Shown: positions 7,799-31,957 of the stretch, piece after piece
How positions within the stretch are numbered: position 1 is the first letter of the stretch
How the letters are laid out: every line of letters starts with the position of its first letter
Assembly: GCF_024298765.1 (NCBI RefSeq)
Contig: NZ_CP101210.1
Length of the DNA: 64,000 nucleotides
Origin: Escherichia coli
GTDB taxonomy: Bacteria; Pseudomonadota; Gammaproteobacteria; Enterobacterales; Enterobacteriaceae
Direction: 5' to 3' (one strand)
Made by a program: the position numbers and the translations under genes
Notes under the pieces: generated by a model
The model's database searches: none
Told to the model about the DNA's origin: nothing
Seen by the model: only the letters and a program-made list of their open reading frames with translations

Positions 7799-8009
7799 TA
7801 CTGAATTGTGATGGTTTGGTCTCCTGCACCCTTTTTTAATTTATATTGTTTATGTGAATATTATGCCTATGTTTATTATTTATATATATTATGGATGAAA
7901 ATCATTTAATTATTCACAATGTAAATATTTTATTGAAAGATATATGTCACAGATAATTTTTAATATATGCGTGAATATCCTTTAAGTTTTACTGAAGGAT
8001 AAAAATATT

Positions 8010-10667
8010 GTGACTTTCTTTTATTTCTGGGGAAAAACCCGACGCGGCGAGAAAGACGGGGGCGAAGACTATCACCTTCTTTGCTGGCATTCGCTGGATG
8101 TAGCCGCGATGGGCTATTTAATGGTTAAAAGCAATTGCTTCGGACTGGCTGGCTATTTTCGTCAATTAGGTTTCGCTGACACGGAGCTGGCAGCACAATT
8201 TTTCGCCTGGCTGCTGTGCTGGCACGATATTGGAAAATTTGCCCGCTCTTTTCAGCAACTTTACCTGCACCCACAACTCAAGGTTCCGGAAGGCGCAAGA
8301 AAGAATTACGAAAAGATCTCTCATTCAACGCTGGGCTACTGGTTGTGGAACCATTATTTAAGTGAATGTCAGGAGTTGCTTCCTTCATCTTCACTCTCTC
8401 CGCGCAAACTTAAACGGGTGATGGAGATGTGGATGCCCATGACTACCGGGCATCATGGTCGACCCCCTGAGCGTATGGATGAACTGGATAATTTTCTGCC
8501 TGAAGACAAAGGTGCCGCACGAGATTTTCTCCTTGCAATCAAGGTACTGTTTCCGCTCATAGAGATCCCCACATTCTGGGATGATGACGAGGGCGTTGAA
8601 CTTATAAAACAACTTTCCTGGTATATCTCTGCAACCGTCGTACTTGCAGACTGGACGGGATCGTCAACGCGATATTTTCCACGCGTTGCACAGGCAATGG
8701 ATATTGAAGATTACTGGCAGAAAACTTTAGTTCAGGCTCAAAACGCCTTAACCGTCTTTCCTCCAAAAGCAGAAAGCGCGCCTTTCACCGGAATTAATAC
8801 GCTGTTTCCTTTTATTGAGAATCCGACACCGCTACAGCAAAAGGTGCTGGATCTGGATATCAGCCAGCCGGGACCACAGTTATTTATTCTGGAGGATGTA
8901 ACCGGCGCAGGTAAAACAGAAGCGGCGCTTATCCTGGCGCACAGGTTGATGGCTGCGGGGAAAGCGCAGGGTTTGTTTTTTGGCCTGCCAACAATGGCAA
9001 CGGCCAATGCCATGTACGATCGACTGGTCAAAACCTGGCTTGCTTTCTATTCGCCAGAGTCCCGCCCCAGCCTGGTGCTGGCACACAGTGCCCGAACATT
9101 AATGGACCGCTTTAATGAATCACTCTGGTCCGGTGATTTAGTCGGGTCAGAAGAACCGGATGAACAAACGTTCAGTCAGGGATGTGCGGCCTGGTTTGCC
9201 GACAGTAACAAGAAGGCGCTACTGGCTGAAATTGGCGTCGGCACGCTGGATCAGGCGATGATGGCTGTGATGCCGTTCAAACATAATAATCTGCGGCTTC
9301 TGGGACTGAGTAACAAAATCCTGCTGGCTGATGAGATCCATGCCTGTGACGCTTACATGTCATGCATTCTTGAAGGGCTGATCGAGCGGCAGGCGCGTGG
9401 CGGAAACAGCGTCATTTTGCTTTCTGCCACGTTATCTCAACAGCAGCGCGACAAACTCGTCGCCGCCTTTGCGCGTGGTATAGAGGGCCAGCAAGAAGCT
9501 CCGTTGCTGGAAAAGGATGATTACCCCTGGCTGACGCACGTTACGAAATCCGATGTGCATTCACACCGGGTAGCGACGCGCAAAGACGTTGAGCGCAGCG
9601 TGAGTGTGGGTTGGCTTCATAGCGAACAAGAGTGTATTGCGCGTATCGAATCGGCGGTAAGTCAGGGGAAATGTATCGCCTGGATCCGAAATTCTGTCGA
9701 TGACGCCATCCAGGTTCATCGTCAGTTACTTGCCCGCGGCGTCATTCCTGCTTCCAGCCTTTCACTTTTTCATAGCCGCTTTGCTTTTAGCGATCGCCAG
9801 CGAATTGAAACGGAGACGCTGGCACGCTTTGGTAAAGAAGACTGTTCACAGCGTGCCGGAAAAGTCCTCATTTGTACTCAAGTCCTGGAGCAGAGCGTTG
9901 ACTGCGACCTGGACGAAATGATTTCCGACCTTGCCCCTGTTGATTTACTGATCCAGCGGGCGGGGCGATTACAGCGGCATATCCGCGATATTAATGGTCT
10001 GTTAAAGCGTGACGGAAAAGACGAGCGTTCCCCTCCTGAATTTCTGATTCTGGCTCCCGTCTGGGACGACTCTCCGGGTGACGAATGGTTTGGCAGCGCC
10101 ATGCGTAACAGTGCATATGTCTACCCCGATCATGGGCGAATCTGGCTGACGCAGCGTGTGCTGCGTGAGCAAGGCGCTATTCAGATGCCACACGCAGCCC
10201 GGCTTCTTATTGAATCAGTCTACGGTGAAGACGTGGCAATGCCGGAAGGATTTGCCCGCAGTGAGCAGGAGCAAGTGGGCAAATATTACTGCGATCGCGC
10301 AATGGCTAAAAAGTTTGTCCTGAACTTCAAGCCTGGCTATGCCGCCAATATCAACGATTACCTTCCGGAAAAGCTGTCGACACGTCTGGCTGAGGAATCT
10401 GTTTCCCTGTGGCTGGCTACCTGTATTGACGGTGTGGTGAAGCCTTATGCCACCGGTGCTCACGCATGGGAAATGAGCGTTGTCAGAGTGCGTCGAAGCT
10501 GGTGGAAAAAACATCGGGATGAGTTTTCTTTACTGGAAGGGGATGCGTTCAGGCAGTGGTGCATTGAACAGCGGCAAGATCCGGAGATGGCAAACGTGAT
10601 TTTAGTCACCGATGACGAAAGTTGCGGGTATTCGGCTATGGAAGGATTGACTGGCAAGGTTGGTTGA
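8010..10667 (+). CDS. cas3: CRISPR-associated helicase/nuclease Cas3 (type I-E)
   Basis: 885-aa ORF starting at GTG 8010 (AAGGA 10 nt upstream); HD-nuclease-like N-terminus (H..LDVAA, HDIGK) and DEAD/DEAH helicase motifs (GAGKTEAA, DEIH); first gene of the cas operon. Confidence 0.9.
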   Translation: MTFFYFWGKTRRGEKDGGEDYHLLCWHSLDVAAMGYLMVKSNCFGLAGYFRQLGFADTELAAQFFAWLLCWHDIGKFARSFQQLYLHPQLKVPEGARKNYEKISHSTLGYWLWNHYLSECQELLPSSSLSPRKLKRVMEMWMPMTTGHHGRPPERMDELDNFLPEDKGAARDFLLAIKVLFPLIEIPTFWDDDEGVELIKQLSWYISATVVLADWTGSSTRYFPRVAQAMDIEDYWQKTLVQAQNALTVFPPKAESAPFTGINTLFPFIENPTPLQQKVLDLDISQPGPQLFILEDVTGAGKTEAALILAHRLMAAGKAQGLFFGLPTMATANAMYDRLVKTWLAFYSPESRPSLVLAHSARTLMDRFNESLWSGDLVGSEEPDEQTFSQGCAAWFADSNKKALLAEIGVGTLDQAMMAVMPFKHNNLRLLGLSNKILLADEIHACDAYMSCILEGLIERQARGGNSVILLSATLSQQQRDKLVAAFARGIEGQQEAPLLEKDDYPWLTHVTKSDVHSHRVATRKDVERSVSVGWLHSEQECIARIESAVSQGKCIAWIRNSVDDAIQVHRQLLARGVIPASSLSLFHSRFAFSDRQRIETETLARFGKEDCSQRAGKVLICTQVLEQSVDCDLDEMISDLAPVDLLIQRAGRLQRHIRDINGLLKRDGKDERSPPEFLILAPVWDDSPGDEWFGSAMRNSAYVYPDHGRIWLTQRVLREQGAIQMPHAARLLIESVYGEDVAMPEGFARSEQEQVGKYYCDRAMAKKFVLNFKPGYAANINDYLPEKLSTRLAEESVSLWLATCIDGVVKPYATGAHAWEMSVVRVRRSWWKKHRDEFSLLEGDAFRQWCIEQRQDPEMANVILVTDDESCGYSAMEGLTGKVG

Positions 10668-10764
10668 GATGCCTGCGACAGGGCTCTCTGAATAGTTGAT
10701 ACACAGAAAAAGATGGAAGGATGGACAACCGGCCAGGGATGGTCTTTTTTACGAGAGGATGCGT

Positions 10765-12327
10765 ATGAACTCGTTTTCACTTCTGACAACCCCGTGGTTG
10801 CCCGTTCGTTTTAAAGACGGAACAACAGGCAAACTGGCGCCAGTCCATCTGGCGGATGAAAATGTTGTCGATATAGCTGCGCCGCGGGCAGATCTCCAGG
10901 GGGCGGCATGGCAGTTTTTGCTGGGGCTACTACAAACCAGCTTCGCGCCAAAAGATCATCGTCGTTGGGATGATATCTGGGAAGACGGACTGGAAGCTGA
11001 AAAGCTACGGGAGGCATTGCTGCCATTAGAGCACGCTTTCCAGTTTGGGCCAGATTCCCCTTCATTTATGCAGGATTTTGAGGCGCTCACGGGAGATAAA
11101 GTTCCGGTCGCTTCGCTACTGCCTGAGATTCCCGGCGTTCAAACAACAAAGTTTAATAAAGACCACTTTATCAAGCGTGGTGTAACGGAACACCTGTGCC
11201 CACAGTGTTCTGCACTAGCCTTGTTCTCTCTACAGTTAAATGCGCCGTCAGGCGGCAAAGGCTATCGCACCGGCTTACGCGGCGGTGGGCCGATGACTAC
11301 TCTGATTGAATTACAGGAATATCAGGGCAATCAACAAACTCCCTTGTGGCGCAAAATGTGGCTCAACGTGATGCCGCAGGATGAAGCCGACTTACCGCTA
11401 CCCAAAAAATTTGACGGTCTGGTTTTCCCCTGGCTTGGCCCGACGCGCACCAGCGAACTGGCCGGTGCGGTGGTAACCGATGATCAGGTTAATAAACTCC
11501 AGGCGTACTGGGGAATGCCGCGGCGTATTCGTATTGATTTTAATACCACGACAGTCGGCAACTGCGATATTTGCGGCGAGCAGAACGACGCGCTCCTGAG
11601 CCTGATGACGACCAAAAATTACGGTGCGAATTATGCCATGTGGCAGCATCCTTTAACGCCTTACCGTATACCACTTAAAGAGGGTGGCGAGTTTTACTCG
11701 GTCAAACCACAACCGGGCGGTTTAATCTGGCGCGACTGGTTAGGCCTTATCGAAACGGGTAAGTCAGAAAACAATACGGAACTTCCTGCACTGGTGGTGA
11801 AACTCTTTAATGCCAGCAGTCTGAAACAGGCAAAAGTGGGCCTATGGGGATTTGGTTATGATTTTGACAACATGAAAGCGCGCTGTTGGTACGAACACCA
11901 TTTCCCGCTACTGCTCAATAAAAAAGAAGGCCAGATACCGAAGCTGCGGCTGGCTGCGCAAACGGCTTCACGGATTCTGAGTCTGTTACGGAGTGCATTG
12001 AAAGAAGCATGGTTCTCCGATCCAAAAGGTGTAAGGGGTGATTTCAGTTTTGTGGATATCGACTTCTGGAACAAAACTCAGCATCGCTTCCTGAGGTTAG
12101 TGCGCCAAATTGAAGAAGGTCAGGATGCGGATGAATTACTCGGCAAATGGCAAAAGGAAATTTGGTTATTCGCGCGTCAGGATTTTGACGAGCGTGTATT
12201 CACTAATCCTTATGAGCCCGTTGATTTGAAACGCGTCATGACCGCGCGCAAGAAATATTTTACAACATCGGCGGAGAAGCAAAGTGCTAAAGCCGCCAGG
12301 GAGAAAAAGCAGGAGGCTGCTGAATGA
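10765..12327 (+). CDS. casA: Cascade large subunit Cse1/CasA (Cas8e)
   Basis: Track ORF 10696..12327; likely start ATG 10765 (MNSFSLLTTPWLPV) preceded by GAGAGG; position and size match the Cascade large subunit. Confidence 0.8.
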   Translation: MNSFSLLTTPWLPVRFKDGTTGKLAPVHLADENVVDIAAPRADLQGAAWQFLLGLLQTSFAPKDHRRWDDIWEDGLEAEKLREALLPLEHAFQFGPDSPSFMQDFEALTGDKVPVASLLPEIPGVQTTKFNKDHFIKRGVTEHLCPQCSALALFSLQLNAPSGGKGYRTGLRGGGPMTTLIELQEYQGNQQTPLWRKMWLNVMPQDEADLPLPKKFDGLVFPWLGPTRTSELAGAVVTDDQVNKLQAYWGMPRRIRIDFNTTTVGNCDICGEQNDALLSLMTTKNYGANYAMWQHPLTPYRIPLKEGGEFYSVKPQPGGLIWRDWLGLIETGKSENNTELPALVVKLFNASSLKQAKVGLWGFGYDFDNMKARCWYEHHFPLLLNKKEGQIPKLRLAAQTASRILSLLRSALKEAWFSDPKGVRGDFSFVDIDFWNKTQHRFLRLVRQIEEGQDADELLGKWQKEIWLFARQDFDERVFTNPYEPVDLKRVMTARKKYFTTSAEKQSAKAAREKKQEAAE

Positions 12328-12860
12328 GTATTGTAAAAGAGGAGCACAAAGCCACGCTGCGTAAATGGCACGAAGAGTTGCAGGAAAAACGCGGCAATCG
12401 TGCCAGTCTGCGGCGTAGCACAACGGTTAATGATGTTTGTCTGTCAGAAGGGTTTCGTTCTCTGCTGATGCAGACCCACACGTTGTGGAAAATTGAATCA
12501 CAGGAGTGGCGTTTTACCGCACTGGCGCTGGTTGCCGCCGTTGCCGCCAATGTAAAAGCCATTGATGAACGGCAGCCTTTTGCCGCGCAGTTGGCGGCGG
12601 TAATGTCTGAGGGGCGTTTTACTCGCCTGTCGGCAGTCAAAACGCCGGATGAATTACTGCGCCAGTTACGTCGCGCGGTCAAATTATTAAATGGTTCCGT
12701 CAATCTTATCTCTTTGGCAGACGATATTTTCCGCTGGTGCCAGGAGAGCGACGATCTGCTCAATCATCACCGCCGCCAGCAGCGGCCAACAGAATTTATC
12801 CGTATCCGCTGGGCGCTGGAATATTACCAGGCTGGCGACGCCGATAACGAACAAAATTAA
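12324..12860 (+). CDS. casB: Cascade small subunit Cse2/CasB (Cas11)
   Basis: 178-aa ORF; start overlaps the cse1 stop (ATGA); AGGAGG RBS; position in operon. Confidence 0.8.
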   Translation: MSIVKEEHKATLRKWHEELQEKRGNRASLRRSTTVNDVCLSEGFRSLLMQTHTLWKIESQEWRFTALALVAAVAANVKAIDERQPFAAQLAAVMSEGRFTRLSAVKTPDELLRQLRRAVKLLNGSVNLISLADDIFRWCQESDDLLNHHRRQQRPTEFIRIRWALEYYQAGDADNEQN

Positions 12861-12874
12861 TAAAGGACTATCTC

Positions 12875-13930
12875 ATGACGACATTTATTCAGCTTCATTT
12901 GTTAACCGCTTACCCTGCTGCCAACCTTAACCGTGATGACACCGGTGCGCCAAAAACTGTGGTACTGGGTGGAGCAACGCGTCTGCGCGTTTCCTCACAA
13001 AGTCTGAAACGTGCGTGGCGCACTTCTGCACTTTTTGAACAGGCACTGGCGGGCCATATTGGTATTCGCAGTGGGCGTATTGCGCGTGAGGCGGCAACTA
13101 TCCTGATTGAGAAAGGCATCGAAGAGAAAAAAGCCATCGAATGGGCGGCAAAAATTGCGGATTATCTTGGGAAAGCTAAAAACGACAAAAAACCAAAAGA
13201 TCCGCTCACTAACGCCGAAACTGAACAGCTAGTCCATATCAGCCCGGCAGAATTTGACGCCGTAAAAGCGCTGGCCCATCAACTGGCCGAAGAAAAGCGC
13301 GCGCCAAAAGAGGAAGATCTCGCTTTGTTACGTAAAGATCGCATGGCGGTAGATATCGCTATGTTTGGTCGTATGCTGGCGAATAAACCCGAATTTAATG
13401 TTGAAGCCGCCTGCCAGGTCGCGCATGCATTTGGTGTCAGTGAAACGATTGTCGAAGATGATTTTTTCACCGCCGTTGATGATTTGCGCCAGGCTTCTGA
13501 AGATGCCGGTGCCGGGCATCTTGGTGAAACCGGATTCGGTTCTGCGCTGTTCTACACCTATATCTGCATCGATAAAGATCTGCTGGTCGAAAACCTCGGC
13601 GGTGACGAAGCGTTAGCTAATCAGACCTTGCGCGCCTTTACGGAAGCCGCACTTAAAGTCTCCCCAACCGGCAAACAGAACAGCTTTGCCAGCCGTGCCT
13701 ACGCCTCCTGGGCGCTGGCAGAAAAAGGCACTGAACAACCACGCTCTCTGGCGGCGGCTTTCTATGAACCCATTAATGGCACCCTCCAGTTAGATGTGGC
13801 GGTGCAGCGTATTACAACGCTTCGCGAAAATATGAATACGGTCTATGAACAGAAGACCGAATGTGCAAGCTTTGACGTGATGAACAAACAGGGAAGCATG
13901 AAGGACGTGCTGGACTTTATCTGCGCGTAA
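12875..13930 (+). CDS. casC: Cascade backbone subunit Cas7e/CasC
   Basis: 351-aa ORF; N-terminus MTTFIQLHLLTAYPAANLNRDDTGAPKT recognised as the CasC family. Confidence 0.9.
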   Translation: MTTFIQLHLLTAYPAANLNRDDTGAPKTVVLGGATRLRVSSQSLKRAWRTSALFEQALAGHIGIRSGRIAREAATILIEKGIEEKKAIEWAAKIADYLGKAKNDKKPKDPLTNAETEQLVHISPAEFDAVKALAHQLAEEKRAPKEEDLALLRKDRMAVDIAMFGRMLANKPEFNVEAACQVAHAFGVSETIVEDDFFTAVDDLRQASEDAGAGHLGETGFGSALFYTYICIDKDLLVENLGGDEALANQTLRAFTEAALKVSPTGKQNSFASRAYASWALAEKGTEQPRSLAAAFYEPINGTLQLDVAVQRITTLRENMNTVYEQKTECASFDVMNKQGSMKDVLDFICA

Positions 13931-13940
13931 GGGGCGGCTA

Positions 13941-14687
13941 ATGAGCCAATATTTGATTTTTCAGCTTCATGGGCCAATGGCATCCTGGGGCGTCGATGCC
14001 CCTGGCGAAGTGCGTCATACCCATGAACTGCCTTCGCGCTCAGCATTGCTGGGGCTGCTGGCTGCCGGGGTAGGGATTCGGCGTGATGATACCGAACGAT
14101 TAAACGCGTTTAACCGCCACTATTCACTGGTGGTTTGCGCCAGCCGTAACCCGCGCTGGGCACGGGATTATCACACGGTCCAGATGCCAAAAGAGGTGCG
14201 TAAAGCGCGTTATTTCAGCCGTCGCGAAGAGTTGAGCGCCCCTGATCTTCTGAGCGCGATTATCTCCCGGCGCGACTACTACACCGATGCCTGGTGGATG
14301 GTGGCGGTGGCAACAACCCCCGATGCGCCTTACAGCCTTGAACAGTTGCAGGACGGTTTACGTCATCCGGTTTTTCCGCTTTATCTGGGGCGAAAAAGTC
14401 ATCCGCTGGCGTTACCACTTGCGCCGTTACTGCTCGAAGGCAACGCGTCTGATGTCTTACGTAACGCATACCAACAGTATCAGGATAGTTTCCGCGAACT
14501 GAAAGTCTCACTCCCGAAACTTCAGGATGAATGCTGGTGGGAAGGGGAACACGACGGCCTGGTCGCGAGCAAAATATTACGTCGCCGGGATGTTCCTTTA
14601 AATCGTCAGCAGTGGCTGTTTGGGGAACGCACCATCAATCAGGGGCCGTGGCTCAGCAAGGAGGAACCATGTACCTCTCAAGAATAA
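13941..14687 (+). CDS. casD: Cascade subunit Cas5e/CasD
   Basis: 248-aa ORF; N-terminus MSQYLIFQLHGPMASWG recognised as the Cas5e family. Confidence 0.85.
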   Translation: MSQYLIFQLHGPMASWGVDAPGEVRHTHELPSRSALLGLLAAGVGIRRDDTERLNAFNRHYSLVVCASRNPRWARDYHTVQMPKEVRKARYFSRREELSAPDLLSAIISRRDYYTDAWWMVAVATTPDAPYSLEQLQDGLRHPVFPLYLGRKSHPLALPLAPLLLEGNASDVLRNAYQQYQDSFRELKVSLPKLQDECWWEGEHDGLVASKILRRRDVPLNRQQWLFGERTINQGPWLSKEEPCTSQE

Positions 14688-15315
14688 CCTTACATACCGG
14701 CCAGCTTTCCCCAGCGCAGTTGCTGCATCTGGTGGATCGCGGTGAATATGTAATGCATCAGTGGCTGTGGGATCTTTTTCCTGGCGGCAAAGAAAGGCAA
14801 TTTCTTTATCGTCGGGAAGAACTCCAGGGGGCGTTTCGCTTTTTTGTCCTGTCGCAGGAACGCCCGGCGGAAAGTGATATTTTCACCATCGAATGCCGAC
14901 CATTTGCGCCAGAGTTGCGTACCGGACAATCCCTTTGTTTCAACCTGCGGGCGAATCCAACAATTTGTAAAGCGGGCAAACGCCACGACTTGCTGATGGA
15001 GGCGAAACGGCAGGTGAGGGGGCAGGTGGAAGGAAGTGATGTCTGGTTGCATCAACAACAGGCTGCGCTGGACTGGCTGGCAGCGCAGGGGGAGAGAAGC
15101 GGTTTTACACTGCTGGATACTTCGGTTGATGCCTACCGACAACAGCAACTGCGGCGGGAAAACTCCCGGCAACTGATCCAGTTCAGTAGCGTGGATTATA
15201 CGGGGATGCTTACGGTCACCGATCCTGGGTTATTTCTGCAACGTCTCAGTCAGGGGTATGGCAAAAGCCGGGCGTTCGGTTGTGGTCTGATGCTGATCAA
15301 ACCCGGAGCAGAGGC

Positions 15316-15319
<4 letters not shown>
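14669..15319 (+). CDS. casE: CRISPR RNA endoribonuclease Cas6e/CasE
   Basis: Track ORF 14531..15319; likely start ATG 14669 (MYLSRITL) with AAGGAGG RBS; glycine-rich C-terminal GCGLM loop typical of Cas6e. Confidence 0.85.
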
Positions 15320-16529
<1,210 letters not shown>

Positions 16530-16625
16530 GTTATCCGTTCTTTAAAAATAAGGAAATGTTTTAATTTAGTTGGTAGATTGTTGATGCGGAATAAATTTGT
16601 TTAAAAACAGTTATGTATGCTTAGT
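16530..16625 (+). promoter_or_regulatory. CRISPR leader (AT-rich, array promoter and integration site)
   Basis: About 96-bp AT-rich segment between the cas2 stop and the first repeat. Confidence 0.6.
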
Positions 16626-17935
16626 GTGTTCCCCGCGCCAGCGGGGATAAACCGCATTGAAAACATTGCCTTTATTTTATTTTTTGGTGTTCCCCGCGCC
16701 AGCGGGGATAAACCGGTGCCGCCGCTGGGCACTTCCTTCCCGTGAGTGTGTTCCCCGCGCCAGCGGGGATAAACCGCCCTGATAGCGTCCAGTTGAATGC
16801 GCGCCCGCGTGTTCCCCGCGCCAGCGGGGATAAACCGGCAGGCACGGGCAATATCAGACTCGGTCAAAGGTGTTCCCCGCGCCAGCGGGGATAAACCGCT
16901 CGGTTGTTTTCATATTACCGGCCTGCCACTGTGTTCCCCGCGCCAGCGGGGATAAACCGACAATATCCCGGACCGGGCGCTGATTTAGTCAGTGTTCCCC
17001 GCGCCAGCGGGGATAAACCGCGGACGGTGGGAATATAGAAAATCCGTCCACCGTGTTCCCCGCGCCAGCGGGGATAAACCGTTATACTCTTTTCATCGAC
17101 TAAGGAGGGGAGGGTGTTCCCCGCGCCAGCGGGGATAAACCGCAATAACGCAGCATCCAGGAAGCTGTTTCCGCGTGTTCCCCGCGCCAGCGGGGATAAA
17201 CCGCGATCGGTGAAGAGGTCCGCGAAATACTCACTGTGTTCCCCGCGCCAGCGGGGATAAACCGGCGATAGTTGATTCAGCCGCGCCAGCGAATGTGTGT
17301 TCCCCGCGCCAGCGGGGATAAACCGGGGCCGCCGCGAATTTACACACGATTCAATACGTGTTCCCCGCGCCAGCGGGGATAAACCGAACTGGTGCGCGAC
17401 GGCTGGCTAACAAAACGAGTGTTCCCCGCGCCAGCGGGGATAAACCGCGTGGCTGCGCTGGCCGTTGCAGCAGTTTGATGTGTTCCCCGCGCCAGCGGGG
17501 ATAAACCGCGTAAACGCCCCGTCGCCATTAATTTCGGGGTGTGTTCCCCGCGCCAGCGGGGATAAACCGTGGGATGAGCAAATAACGTCGTTTCCTAGAA
17601 AGTGTTCCCCGCGCCAGCGGGGATAAACCGCCGCCGTGCCAGTGATCCTCATACGGCCTGTTGTGTTCCCCGCGCCAGCGGGGATAAACCGAAATTAAGA
17701 ACGGCGTAAACGACGGCAGCATGGTGTTCCCCGCGCCAGCGGGGATAAACCGGTGATGATTCAGAGCAGACATTAGCCCGCGCTGTGTTCCCCGCGCCAG
17801 CGGGGATAAACCGGGTAAAAACACGGTCTGAACCGACATTCATGTGTGTTCCCCGCGTCAGCGGGGATAAACCGGACGCACTGGATGCGATGATGGATAT
17901 CACTTAGAATTCCCCGCCCCTGCGGTAGAACTCCC
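16626..17935 (+). CRISPR. Type I-E CRISPR array: 21 repeats of GTGTTCCCCGCGCCAGCGGGGATAAACCG plus a degenerate terminal repeat, 21 spacers of 32 nt
   Basis: Repeats counted by hand at 16626, 16687, 16748 ... 17846 with an exact 61-bp period. Repeat 21 (17846-17874) carries one substitution (GCGTCAGCG); the terminal repeat 17907-17935 (GAATTCCCCGCCCCTGCGGTAGAACTCCC) matches about 18/29. Confidence 0.97.
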
Positions 17936-26820: not shown

Positions 26821-27960
26821 ATGAGCGCGGGAAGCCCAAAATTCACCGTTCGCCGCATTGCGGCTTTGTCACTGGTTTCGCTATGGCTGGCAGGCTGTTC
26901 TGACACTTCAAATCCACCGGCACCGGTCAGCTCCGTTAATGGCAATGCGCCTGCAAATACCAATTCTGGTATGTTGATTACGCCGCCGCCGAAAATGGGG
27001 ACGACGTCTACAGCGCAGCAACCGCAAATTCAGCCGGTACAGCAGCCACAAATTCAGGCTACTCAACAACCGCAAATCCAGCCAGTACAGCCAGTAGCTC
27101 AGCAGCCGGTACAGATGGAAAACGGACGCATCGTCTACAACCGTCAGTATGGGAACATTCCGAAAGGCAGTTATAGCGGCAGTACCTATACCGTGAAAAA
27201 AGGCGACACACTTTTCTATATCGCCTGGATTACTGGCAACGATTTCCGTGACCTTGCTCAGCGCAACAATATTCAGGCACCATATGCGCTGAACGTCGGT
27301 CAGACCTTACAGGTGGGTAATGCTTCCGGTACGCCAATCACTGGCGGAAATGCCATTACCCAGGCCGACGCAGCAGAGCAAGGAGTTGTGATCAAGCCTG
27401 CACAAAATTCCACCGTTGCTGTTGCGTCGCAACCGACAATTACGTATTCTGAGTCTTCGGGTGAACAGAGTGCTAACAAAATGTTGCCGAACAACAAGCC
27501 AACTGCGACCACGGTCACAGCGCCTGTAACGGTACCAACAGCAAGCACAACCGAGCCGACTGTCAGCAGTACATCAACCAGTACGCCTATCTCCACCTGG
27601 CGCTGGCCGACTGAGGGCAAAGTGATCGAAACCTTTGGCGCTTCTGAGGGGGGCAACAAGGGGATTGATATCGCAGGCAGCAAAGGACAGGCAATTATCG
27701 CGACCGCAGATGGCCGCGTTGTTTATGCCGGTAACGCGCTGCGCGGCTACGGTAATCTGATTATCATCAAACATAATGATGATTACCTGAGTGCCTACGC
27801 CCATAACGACACAATGCTGGTCCGGGAACAACAAGAAGTGAAGGCGGGGCAAAAAATAGCAACCATGGGTAGCACCGGAACCAGTTCAACACGCTTGCAT
27901 TTTGAAATTCGTTACAAGGGGAAATCCGTAAACCCGCTGCGTTATTTGCCGCAGCGATAA
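26821..27960 (+). CDS. nlpD: murein hydrolase activator lipoprotein NlpD (LysM + M23 domain)
   Basis: 379-aa ORF with lipoprotein signal (LAGCS), Q/P-rich repeat linker and LysM/M23 regions; the rpoS promoter is known to lie within this gene in E. coli. Confidence 0.9.
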
Positions 27961-28022: not shown

Positions 28023-29015
28023 ATGAGTCAGAATACGCTGAAAGTTCATGATTTAAATGAAGATGCGGAATTTGATGAGAACGGAGTTGAGGTTTTTGAC
28101 GAAAAGGCCTTAGTAGAAGAGGAACCCAGTGATAACGATTTGGCCGAAGAGGAACTGTTATCGCAGGGAGCCACACAGCGTGTGCTGGACGCGACTCAGC
28201 TTTACCTTGGTGAGATTGGTTATTCACCACTGTTAACGGCCGAAGAAGAAGTTTATTTTGCGCGTCGCGCACTGCGTGGAGATGTCGCCTCTCGCCGCCG
28301 GATGATCGAGAGTAACTTGCGTCTGGTGGTAAAAATTGCCCGCCGTTATGGCAATCGTGGTCTGGCGTTGCTGGACCTGATCGAAGAGGGCAACCTGGGG
28401 CTGATCCGCGCGGTAGAGAAGTTTGACCCGGAACGTGGTTTCCGCTTCTCAACATACGCAACCTGGTGGATTCGCCAGACGATCGAACGGGCGATTATGA
28501 ACCAAACCCGTACTATTCGTTTGCCGATTCACATCGTAAAGGAGCTGAACGTTTACCTGCGAACCGCACGCGAGTTGTCCCATAAACTGGACCACGAACC
28601 AAGTGCGGAAGAGATCGCAGAGCAACTGGATAAGCCAGTTGATGACGTCAGCCGTATGCTTCGTCTTAACGAGCGCATTACCTCGGTAGACACCCCGCTG
28701 GGTGGTGATTCCGAAAAAGCGTTGCTGGACATCCTGGCCGATGAAAAAGAGAACGGTCCGGAAGATACCACGCAAGATGACGATATGAAGCAGAGCATCG
28801 TCAAATGGCTGTTCGAGCTGAACGCCAAACAGCGTGAAGTACTGGCACGTCGATTCGGTTTGCTGGGGTACGAAGCGGCAACACTGGAAGATGTAGGTCG
28901 TGAAATTGGCCTCACCCGTGAACGTGTTCGCCAGATTCAGGTTGAAGGCCTGCGCCGTTTGCGCGAAATCCTGCAAACGCAGGGGCTGAATATCGAAGCG
29001 CTGTTCCGCGAATAA
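28023..29015 (+). CDS. rpoS: RNA polymerase sigma factor RpoS (sigma-38)
   Basis: Track ORF 27987..29015; 330-aa protein from [21 protein letters not shown] recognised as RpoS; codon 33 is GAG (Glu). Confidence 0.95.
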
Positions 29016-29135: not shown

Positions 29136-29543
29136 CTATTTGCTCATCATCTTGCGCACCAGCTGCATAAACAGCTCCTGCTCTTCTCCACTCAAACGCC
29201 CCAAAAATTCCTCATCCACACTGTCACCTATCGGTATCGCCGCAGCAAGTATCTTTTCGCCTTCGGCAGTCAGCCAGACAAAGCGTCGCCGCTTGTCAGC
29301 GGCGTCATGTTCACGTCTGACTAAGCCACGATTTTCCATTCTTGCCAACATTTCTGCCAGCGTTGCTTTGGTGCTGACTGCTGCTTCTATCAGTGCCACC
29401 TGTTCGATACCAGGCTTATCAGCAATGGCGCGCATCACCGCGTACTGTGGTTTGGTCAGGTCAGGTAACTCGTGCTGCCAGCGAGCTGTATGCTGCTGAA
29501 AAAGCTGTCGTAACTGATGGAACGCTTTATTTCGTAACGCCAT
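29136..29543 (-). CDS. hosA: MarR/SlyA-family transcriptional regulator HosA
   Basis: Track ORF 29136..29576; likely 135-aa protein from MALRNKAFHQLRQLF; winged-helix MarR-like sequence; recognised as the SlyA homologue found next to rpoS in non-K-12 E. coli. Confidence 0.75.
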   Translation of the reverse strand: MALRNKAFHQLRQLFQQHTARWQHELPDLTKPQYAVMRAIADKPGIEQVALIEAAVSTKATLAEMLARMENRGLVRREHDAADKRRRFVWLTAEGEKILAAAIPIGDSVDEEFLGRLSGEEQELFMQLVRKMMSK

Positions 29544-29658
29544 GTAAACTCCGGGCAAACTATCTGCCGCTATCATAGCGGTTTTTCAGTGACGAAGAAG
29601 ATGTTGTTACTTTTCAGCGCTTGCCGCGATGAAAACAGAGGCGTATTTTAATAATAAC

Positions 29659-29672
29659 GTTCGTATACGAAC
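29659..29672. promoter_or_regulatory. Perfect 14-bp palindrome GTTCGTATACGAAC upstream of ecdB (candidate MarR-type operator)
   Basis: Perfect dyad read from the sequence, 17 bp upstream of the ecdB start, in the hosA/ecdB divergent region. Confidence 0.45.
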
Positions 29673-29689
29673 AATTTAGAGAGTAAGCA

Positions 29690-30283
29690 ATGAAACTGAT
29701 CGTCGGGATGACAGGGGCTACCGGTGCGCCTCTTGGTGTGGCATTACTGCAAGCGCTGCGGGAGATGCCGAATGTCGAGACTCATCTGGTGATGTCGACG
29801 TGGGCGAAAACCACCATTGAACTGGAAACGCCTTACAGCGCCCGCGATGTTGCTGCCCTCGCAGACTTCAGCCATAACCCGGCGGATCAGGCGGCGACCA
29901 TCTCCTCAGGTTCCTTTCGTACCGACGGCATGATCGTTATTCCGTGCAGTATGAAAACGCTCGCCGGTATCCGTGCCGGTTACGCCGATGGCCTGGTGGG
30001 GCGCGCGGCGGACGTCGTGCTCAAAGAAGGCCGCAAACTAGTGCTGGTGCCGCGTGAAATGCCGCTTAGCACCATCCATCTCGAAAATATGCTCGCACTT
30101 TCACGCATGGGCGTGGCGATGGTGCCGCCGATGCCTGCCTTTTATAACCATCCCGAAACGGTAGATGACATTGTCCACCACGTGGTAGCCCGCGTGCTGG
30201 ATCAATTTGGCCTCGAACATCCCCACGCCAGGCGCTGGCAAGGATTGCCGCAGGTCCGGAATTTTTCTCAGGAGAATGAATAA
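29690..30283 (+). CDS. ecdB: UbiX-family flavin prenyltransferase (Pad1-like; partner of a UbiD-type decarboxylase)
   Basis: 197-aa ORF MKLIVGMTGATGAPLG... typical UbiX/Pad1 fold; symbol from memory of E. coli O157-type annotation (also called pad1/kpdB). Confidence 0.8.
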   Translation: MKLIVGMTGATGAPLGVALLQALREMPNVETHLVMSTWAKTTIELETPYSARDVAALADFSHNPADQAATISSGSFRTDGMIVIPCSMKTLAGIRAGYADGLVGRAADVVLKEGRKLVLVPREMPLSTIHLENMLALSRMGVAMVPPMPAFYNHPETVDDIVHHVVARVLDQFGLEHPHARRWQGLPQVRNFSQENE

Positions 30284-31710
30284 TGGCATTTGATGATTTA
30301 CGCAGCTTTTTACAGGCGCTTGATGACCACGGCCAGTTACTGAAAATCAGCGAAGAGGTGAACGCGGAACCGGATCTGGCAGCCGCAGCCAACGCCACCG
30401 GGCGTATCGGCGACGGCGCGCCCGCGCTTTGGTTTGATAATATTCGCGGCTTTATCGATGCCCGCGTGGCAATGAACACCATCGGTTCCTGGCAGAACCA
30501 CGCGATTTCCCTCGGCCTGCCGCCAAACACCCCGGTTAAAAAACAGATTGATGAGTTTATCCGCCGCTGGGATAACTTCCCCATTGCCCCGGAGCGCCGC
30601 GCCAATCCAGCCTGGGCGCAGAACACCGTCGATGGCGACGAGATCAACCTGTTCGATATTCTGCCACTGTTTCGTTTAAACGACGGTGATGGCGGTTTCT
30701 ATCTCGACAAAGCGTGCGTGGTTTCCCGCGATCCGCTTGATCCGGATAACTTCGGCAAGCAGAACGTCGGCATCTACCGTATGGAAGTGAAGGGTAAGCG
30801 TAAGCTCGGTCTGCAACCGGTGCCGATGCACGATATCGCCCTGCATCTGCATAAAGCGGAAGAGCGCGGTGAAGATCTGCCGATTGCAATCACGCTCGGT
30901 AACGATCCGATCATCACCCTGATGGGGGCCACGCCGCTGAAATACGATCAGTCTGAGTATGAAATGGCAGGCGCGCTGCGCGAAAGCCCGTACCCGATCG
31001 CCACCGCCCCGCTGACCGGTTTTGATGTGCCGTGGGGCTCGGAAGTGATCCTCGAAGGGGTCATCGAAAGCCGTAAACGCGAAATCGAAGGGCCGTTCGG
31101 TGAGTTTACCGGGCACTACTCCGGCGGGCGTAATATGACCGTCGTGCGCATTGATAAAGTCTCTTATCGCAGCAAACCCATTTTTGAATCGCTCTATCTC
31201 GGGATGCCGTGGACGGAAATCGACTACCTGATGGGGCCAGCCACCTGCGTGCCGCTGTATCAGCAACTGAAAGCCGAGTTCCCGGAAGTGCAGGCGGTGA
31301 ACGCCATGTACACCCACGGCCTTCTGGCGATTATCTCCACCAAAAAACGCTACGGCGGCTTTGCCCGCGCGGTGGGCCTGCGTGCGATGACCACGCCGCA
31401 CGGTCTGGGCTACGTGAAGATGGTGATTATGGTCGATGAAGACGTTGATCCGTTCAACCTGCCGCAGGTGATGTGGGCGCTCTCCTCGAAAGTGAACCCG
31501 GCAGGGGATTTGGTGCAGTTGCCGAATATGTCCGTGCTGGAACTCGACCCCGGCTCAAGCCCGGCCGGTATCACCGACAAGCTGATTATCGACGCCACCA
31601 CGCCTGTCGCTCCGGACAACCGTGGTCACTACAGCCAGCCGGTGGTGGATTTACCGGAAACCAAAGCCTGGGCTGAAAAACTGACCGCTATGCTGGCCGC
31701 ACGTCAATAA
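30283..31710 (+). CDS. ecdC: UbiD-family (prenyl-FMN dependent) aromatic acid decarboxylase, catalytic subunit
   Basis: 475-aa ORF, start overlapping the ecdB stop; recognised as the UbiD family (yclC-like). Confidence 0.8.
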   Translation: MAFDDLRSFLQALDDHGQLLKISEEVNAEPDLAAAANATGRIGDGAPALWFDNIRGFIDARVAMNTIGSWQNHAISLGLPPNTPVKKQIDEFIRRWDNFPIAPERRANPAWAQNTVDGDEINLFDILPLFRLNDGDGGFYLDKACVVSRDPLDPDNFGKQNVGIYRMEVKGKRKLGLQPVPMHDIALHLHKAEERGEDLPIAITLGNDPIITLMGATPLKYDQSEYEMAGALRESPYPIATAPLTGFDVPWGSEVILEGVIESRKREIEGPFGEFTGHYSGGRNMTVVRIDKVSYRSKPIFESLYLGMPWTEIDYLMGPATCVPLYQQLKAEFPEVQAVNAMYTHGLLAIISTKKRYGGFARAVGLRAMTTPHGLGYVKMVIMVDEDVDPFNLPQVMWALSSKVNPAGDLVQLPNMSVLELDPGSSPAGITDKLIIDATTPVAPDNRGHYSQPVVDLPETKAWAEKLTAMLAARQ

Positions 31711-31720
31711 GGAGAACAAG

Positions 31721-31957
31721 ATGATTTGTCCACGTTGTGCCGATGAACAGATTGAAGTGATGGCGAAATCGCCGGTAAAAGATGTCTGGATGGTCTACCA
31801 GTGCCAGCATTGCCTCTATACCTGGCGCGATACCGAACCGCTACGCCGCACCAGCCGCGAACATTATCCCGAAGCGTTCCGCATGACGCAGAAAGATATT
31901 GATGACGCGCCGATGGTGCCGAGCATCCCGCCGCTGCTGGCGGAAGGTAAGCGCTAA
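31721..31957 (+). CDS. ecdD: small subunit of the phenolic acid decarboxylase (YclD-like, Cys-rich)
   Basis: 78-aa ORF with CxxC...CxxC spacing, directly downstream of the UbiD-like gene. Confidence 0.65.
   Translation: MICPRCADEQIEVMAKSPVKDVWMVYQCQHCLYTWRDTEPLRRTSREHYPEAFRMTQKDIDDAPMVPSIPPLLAEGKR

Follow-up and report, generated by a model that had tools for sequence, protein, structure and literature searches.

In-frame length variants of a 24-nt coding repeat in the linker of Escherichia coli NlpD

VNTRs in the coding regions of bacterial envelope proteins have in-frame units, vary in length among strains, and have their breakpoints at repeated sequence. For E. coli NlpD, "unusual amino acid repeat sequences" were reportedly named by Ichikawa et al. 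in 1994 (J Bacteriol 176:1630; see also Lange and Hengge-Aronis 1994). The repeat that we analyse here lies in the same gene and in the same N-terminal proline/glutamine-rich region, and it does not differ in kind. In other words, the repeat has been known since nlpD was first described, and our census of its copy number is an addition to that description rather than a new feature. A limited literature search found no paper that describes length polymorphism of the E. coli nlpD repeat. Like the coding-region VNTRs, the nlpD array has head-to-tail units, differs in copy number among strains, and keeps the reading frame. However, it is far less variable than the VNTRs that are used for typing, as its units are 62-88% identical to each other and 98.6% of genomes have the same length.

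A P/Q-rich N-terminal repeat is present in NlpD from both E. coli and Salmonella and is absent from Yersinia (Tidhar et al., PMC2736372). Another strain-specific in-frame indel in nlpD has been described in Salmonella Typhimurium UK-1, which has a 12-bp in-frame deletion that the authors judged to be outside of the rpoS promoter (PMC3391293). The deleted string was given as CTTGTTGCGGCG, and its reverse complement (CGCCGCAACAAG) is Q/P-type coding sequence. This deletion resembles the variants that we describe below in being strain-specific and in frame, but it is from another species whose repeat is degenerate instead of a clean 8-residue repeat.

The window (the whole stretch of E. coli DNA that we analysed, 64,000 nt) contains the gene order surE-pcm-nlpD-rpoS at 25.3-29.0 kb, based on the open reading frames in the window and the annotation of E. 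coli strain 104. The ATG of rpoS is at 28023. Strain 104 (from chicken, China) is 99.9% identical to the window from position 16931 onward. The matching region is annotated as nlpD across E. coli genomes (5,420 complete genomes). The main features of this gene are:

26821..27960, + strand: nlpD coding sequence, 379 amino acids with an ATG start (from the list of open reading frames, the Pfam matches, and an N-terminus that is conserved in homologues)
26821..26898, + strand: lipoprotein signal peptide, ending in the lipobox L-A-G-C (read from the translation; the codon for Cys26 is 26896-26898)
27187..27315, + strand: LysM domain, residues 123-165, the first folded domain past the linker (PF01476, E = 2.7e-12)
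27655..27936, + strand: degenerate LytM/M23 domain (Peptidase_M23), residues 279-372 (PF01551, E = 4.6e-33)

The matches to PF01476 and PF01551 both exceed the Pfam cut-offs. The lipobox (LAGC) is at residues 23-26, and all 32 homologues share A24, G25, and C26. The LytM/M23 domain has relatives in PDB, namely DipM and EnvC. Intact M23 enzymes have the metal-binding motifs HxxxD and HxH; in the translation of NlpD these motifs are degenerate, with NKGID in place of HxxxD and RLH in place of HxH. From its predicted domains, we identify the protein as NlpD, an outer-membrane lipoprotein with a LysM domain and a degenerate LytM domain, and the gene order fits. NlpD has a role in the activation of the amidase AmiC at the division site (PMC5533458). 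A second linker, between LysM and LytM (27490-27650, residues ~225-255), is rich in Thr, Ser, Pro, and Val and is of low complexity.

RefSeq/PGAP now places the start of nlpD at TTG 26866, which gives a protein of 364 amino acids. This start is just 11 residues ahead of the lipobox cysteine, and the N-region would then lack charges. A start at ATG 26821 instead yields a signal peptide of 26 residues and is preceded by GGGGATAA; also, residues 1-18 are almost invariant among homologues. The true form of NlpD looks like the longer one (379 amino acids, starting at ATG 26821).

The repeat region (27016-27114) lies within nlpD, in the part that separates the lipidated Cys26 from the LysM domain (which starts at residue 123). 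Position 27016 is in frame, and the 99 nt encode residues 66-98. The units and the exact repeats within this region are:

27016..27039, + strand: repeat unit 1, QQPQIQPV, CAGCAACCGCAAATTCAGCCGGTA (residues 66-73)
27040..27063, + strand: repeat unit 2, QQPQIQAT, CAGCAGCCACAAATTCAGGCTACT, the diverged unit (residues 74-81)
27064..27087, + strand: repeat unit 3, QQPQIQPV, CAACAACCGCAAATCCAGCCAGTA (residues 82-89)
27088..27114, + strand: degenerate tail, QPVAQQPVQ (residues 90-98)
27079..27096, + strand: perfect 9-nt tandem, (CAGCCAGTA)x2, encoding QPV-QPV, the site of the +/-9-nt variants (from TRF)
27031..27042 and 27103..27114, + strand: 12-nt exact direct repeat, CAGCCGGTACAG, copies 72 nt apart
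27019..27029 and 27067..27077, + strand: 11-nt exact direct repeat, CAACCGCAAAT, copies 48 nt apart
27025 and 27049, + strand: 9-nt exact direct repeat, CAAATTCAG, copies 24 nt apart

A preliminary description of this DNA had reported tandem imperfect repeats at 27016-27115 that encode the Q/P-rich linker of NlpD. The coordinates, the gene, and the linker were right, but the unit was given as QQPQIQPVQ, and it is 8 residues long, not 9. The same description called the ~24-nt copies near-identical, which does not hold: units 1 and 2 are identical at 17 of 24 positions, units 1 and 3 at 21 of 24, and units 2 and 3 at 15 of 24. Units 1 and 3 have three differences, and every one is synonymous. 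TRF reports a period of 24 nt with 2.7 copies and 70% matches. The 24-nt repeat exceeds what is expected by chance. (The self-match at period 24 is 44/72, as compared to 33.4 +/- 1.5, with a maximum of 38, in 200 shuffles of the codons of nlpD; 0 of the 200 shuffles reached 44.) The exact stretch shared by neighbouring units is at most 9 nt, and the only adjacent perfect repeat in the array is the 9-nt QPV tandem, not the 24-nt units. In K-12 and O157, this 9-nt tandem is imperfect (GTG/GTA).

For a census of copy number, we used 5,426 complete genomes of E. coli from RefSeq, of which 5,420 have the nlpD region. Length variants were found in 75 of these 5,420 genomes (1.4%), none of them by a step of a single unit, and the remaining 98.6% have a single common length. 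The expectation that copy number could vary between strains was borne out: the repeat number is not identical in all strains, and there are five classes of variants. First, 61 genomes lack 48 nt, which leaves one unit. These were identified with an 84-nt junction query and a strict E-value limit, and the same 61 genomes were reconfirmed with a 292-nt query, each with a single ungapped match of 292 nt. Second, two genomes lack 72 nt (Z142-6 and USDA-ARS-USMARC-49610). Third, PapRG-04-4, from a baboon, has 48 additional nt and hence five units. Finally, allele-specific queries identified seven genomes with 9 nt fewer (one QPV copy) and four genomes with 9 nt more (three QPV copies). Every length change is divisible by 3 and, on translation, each allele reads through the region intact; there are no frameshift variants among the observed length variants.

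There were no two-unit or four-unit alleles among the 5,420 genomes, as judged with synthetic queries that rank such alleles first; these queries did bring out the +48 allele and the +/-9 alleles. No change by a single unit (+/-24 nt) was observed, despite the 9-nt exact repeat whose copies are 24 nt apart, so the length of a repeat does not by itself predict which events occur or persist. We also ran a further panel of 37 junctions, which represented, for three allele backgrounds, every in-frame deletion or duplication that has 6 nt or more of microhomology, and which had random 30-nt spacers. (In local validation, common alleles scored 56 or less and controls scored 64 or more.) This panel found no new variant and returned only five genomes that were already known. 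One group of ~64 genomes with partial coverage had been a candidate for an allele with QQPQIQSA at unit 2, but QQPQIQSA is found at unit 2 in only nine genomes, and the group has the 48-nt deletion instead.

The genome counts are not counts of events and are biased by sampling; for instance, many of the genomes are O157:H7. The 61 genomes that lack 48 nt fall into five identity classes. One of these classes (~28 genomes) includes O157:H7 strains EC4115, TW14359, SS17, and SS52 and their relatives; O157:H7 ATCC 43890 has three units. Judging from the strain names, the O157:H7 carriers of the deletion would be clade 8. In the literature that we searched, there was no relevant publication that ties nlpD to VNTR typing or to O157:H7 clade 8. 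If a wider survey agrees, the 48-nt deletion could be a simple marker of the O157:H7 group to which EC4115 and TW14359 belong.

We also note that the 5' region of nlpD has no match in 6 of the 5,426 genomes, and one or two others show partial coverage (<80%). In one genome, the match to nlpD is split into two places, which suggests that nlpD is interrupted. The missing, split, or partial matches could reflect deletions of nlpD-rpoS or an insertion in nlpD.

For each class of variant that was observed, the strain's own background contains an exact direct repeat, 7 nt or longer, to which the change maps. The corresponding repeats in the window are the 12-nt repeat at a distance of 72 nt (for -72 and +72), the 11-nt repeat at 48 nt (for -48 and +48), and the adjacent 9-nt tandem (for -9 and +9). 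The 72-nt deletion in Z142-6 has its junction where the two 12-nt copies are joined, and the reciprocal event, a 72-nt duplication at the same 12-nt repeat, is seen in L016, a draft assembly of E. coli. The common -48 allele, as carried by ECCWS199, O157:H7 TW14359, and P276M, has a hybrid unit (CAGCAACCGCAAAT joined to CCAGCCAGTG) with the crossover within the 11-nt repeat; the +48 allele has the reciprocal hybrid unit, also with the crossover at the 11-nt repeat. PEC145 lacks 48 nt but has unit 1 intact, so this is a second and independent -48 event. By our reading of the alleles, the crossover in PEC145 is at a 7-nt match (GTGCAGC) that is present in a K-12-like background. The +9 allele is found in two distinct backgrounds. 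Given at least two types of -48 junctions, five classes of flanking sequence, and two backgrounds for +9, these events recur.

The 24-nt units change in effective steps of 48 and 72 nt, and never by one unit, because units 1 and 3 are alike and unit 2 has diverged. The rule from the census is that every class of variant corresponds to an exact direct repeat and that there are no single-unit changes. Replication slippage or short-homology recombination is our proposed mechanism for the length events. Assemblers can collapse short repeats, and some of the variants are rare (the +48 allele is a singleton and the -72 allele is a pair), which might raise the concern that the variants are artefacts of assembling or sequencing a repetitive stretch. 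This is very improbable. The full array is 99 nt, which is below read length; many laboratories contributed the 61 complete genomes that carry the -48 allele, among them O157:H7 EC4115 and TW14359, which were finished independently; the -48 protein allele tops a cluster of 191 members (P0008) in another collection; and the reciprocal products (-48/+48 and -72/+72) have identical crossover sites.

The main promoter of rpoS is at -601 to -566 of rpoS (PMC1852560). Given the ATG at 28023, this corresponds to ~27422-27457, with the -35 about 310 nt downstream of the end of the array. Scans of both strands with Rfam and with consensus promoters and terminators found nothing in the array and no promoter-like site in or near it. 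These results bear on whether the array is a contingency (phase-variable) locus, where NlpD, or rpoS downstream of it, would often be switched on and off or between states by slippage. Such a role might be imagined for a tandem repeat that is within a gene of the nlpD-rpoS operon and whose copy number differs among strains, but we give it almost no credence. None of the observed changes disturbs the frame (each is a multiple of 3), adjacent units share no more than 9 exact nt, and one length accounts for 98.6% of genomes. Inheritance of the variants looks clonal, for instance in the O157:H7 group. Furthermore, the array ends ~310 nt before the -35 of the main promoter of rpoS, and promoter-like sites are absent in and near it on both strands. 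By the criteria for contingency loci, this role is disfavoured. We would not expect the array to be a phase-variation switch or to have a role in the function of the rpoS promoter.

Beyond E. coli, a protein search found three units in E. fergusonii, ending in SV, SA, and PV. An Escherichia assembly (L015 1501-2718, GCA_026283405.1) that is ~91-93% identical to the window across surE-rpoS has seven QQPQIQxx units. These seven units result from an exact tandem duplication of 72 nt (three units), which looks recent. In Citrobacter, Salmonella, Kosakonia, Enterobacter, and others, the equivalent position is occupied by a degenerate Q/P/V stretch with indels of its own. For example, K. cowanii has runs of QPV at this position, and C. 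freundii has a deletion of 13 residues between two copies of QIQPV. In an alignment of 32 sequences, the columns for residues 66-89 are 56% gaps, and the flanking blocks (residues 50-60 and 99-122) have zero gaps. The repeat is the most length-variable part of the linker in the Enterobacteriaceae, and it lies between conserved blocks. Within the tail, Q90 and V97 are invariant, and the remainder is largely conserved across the Enterobacteriaceae.

Among the three units in the window, the 18 nt that encode QQPQIQ have four variable sites, and 4/4 of the changes are synonymous changes at the third position. By our own count, these six codons allow 54 single-base changes, of which 9 (about 1 in 6) are synonymous. 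The last two codons of the units vary non-synonymously: they encode PV, AT, and PV in the window and SA or PM in other strains. Because all four of the changes in QQPQIQ are synonymous, the duplication appears to be old and constrained at the peptide level. The synonymous divergence among the units also means that most of the DNA homology that slippage needs is gone. We think it quite probable that the segment arose long ago, when a 24-nt unit encoding QQPQIQ and two free residues was triplicated in frame; this confidence is for the entire explanation, including the tether, slippage, and neutrality, taken jointly.

We propose that the repeat acts mainly as part of a flexible tether in the outer-membrane lipoprotein NlpD. 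If so, then 1 to 5 units (or 7 units, in a related lineage of Escherichia) would be tolerated, and the copy number would have little or no effect on phenotype. In-frame drift in the length of a low-complexity linker is expected and ordinary behaviour. The N-terminal linker of NlpD was predicted to be disordered by DISOPRED (Tsang et al. 2017, PMC5533458). AlphaFold2, run with an alignment of 32 sequences, gave a mean pLDDT of 34, with even the M23 domain left unresolved, and we found no relatives in PDB that cover the linker, so for disorder we rely on the published prediction. In another study, NlpD lacking residues 29-64 was impaired in (Lol-dependent) sorting to the outer membrane (El Rayes et al., bioRxiv 10.1101/2021.01.05.425367). 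That construct retains the repeat (residues 66-98), as the deletion ends just ahead of unit 1. The repeat sits inside the linker of NlpD, which is one of the disordered linkers considered in that study, along with those of RcsF and Pal.

We also noticed a block of 12 residues (residues 49-60; 26965-27000) that is almost invariant in the Enterobacteriaceae, with a mean column entropy of 0.30 and no gaps, despite its location in the linker predicted to be disordered. This block is removed by the published deletion of residues 29-64, and it, rather than the length of the linker, might explain the sorting defect.

Besides E. coli, the exact QQPQIQ is found in E. fergusonii and in the 7-unit Escherichia allele. 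This exact conservation suggests that the sequence may be more than a neutral spacer, and it counts against a pure tether. An alternative is that QQPQIQ is a functional short linear motif (for septal targeting, for binding a partner, or for handling by Lol), that its copies tune NlpD, and that the variants are adaptive. The synonymous changes at 4/4 of the variable sites in QQPQIQ, while the last two codons are free (PV, AT, SA, or PM), would fit with this, as would the exact conservation of the hexapeptide in both E. fergusonii and the 7-unit allele. By itself, the N-terminal linker is weakly enriched at mid-cell (PMC5533458), and the -48 allele is common to all of the ~28 genomes of the O157:H7 group in one identity class. 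However, the repeat is wholly absent from NlpD of Yersinia (PMC2736372) and is merely a degenerate Q/P/V stretch in Salmonella, Citrobacter, Kosakonia, and others. Also, alleles with one unit or five units are found in otherwise ordinary isolates from many hosts, and no phenotype was reported in the literature that we searched. Overall, we consider a functional motif to be unlikely. A more specific form of this idea, which we rate slightly lower still, is that QQPQIQ is a selected motif whose dose (1, 3, 5, or 7 copies) sets the reach or the strength of NlpD's engagement of the septal wall or of a partner. If this were true, then the one-unit allele of the O157:H7 EC4115/TW14359 group and of ~30 other genomes would have a measurable phenotype of the cell envelope. 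The natural alleles with 1, 3, or 5 units (and 7 units in a related Escherichia) are ready material for comparing the effects of tether length and of the QQPQIQ motif.

A few observations from elsewhere in the window are worth recording. Between rpoS and ygbN, at 29136-31957, there are a MarR-family regulator (on the minus strand) and a non-oxidative hydroxyarylic acid decarboxylase, represented by its three subunits B, C, and D. K-12 presumably lacks this insert. The insert falls in the variable mutS-rpoS region, which is discussed in PMC4209514. The window also contains a type I-E CRISPR-Cas locus at ~7970-17630. In strain 104, the cas3 of this locus is frameshifted and casA has an internal stop. 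The window and strain 104 differ by an offset of 244 nt that is resolved inside the CRISPR array, and four fewer 61-nt repeat-spacer units in the window would fit this offset. Finally, 7478-7635 matches the sok antitoxin RNA from Rfam (111.7 bits, as compared to a gathering score of 59). This match adjoins a gene of the Hok/Gef family (from the annotation of strain 104), and the region is a predicted chromosomal toxin-antitoxin locus of the hok/sok type next to cysH.
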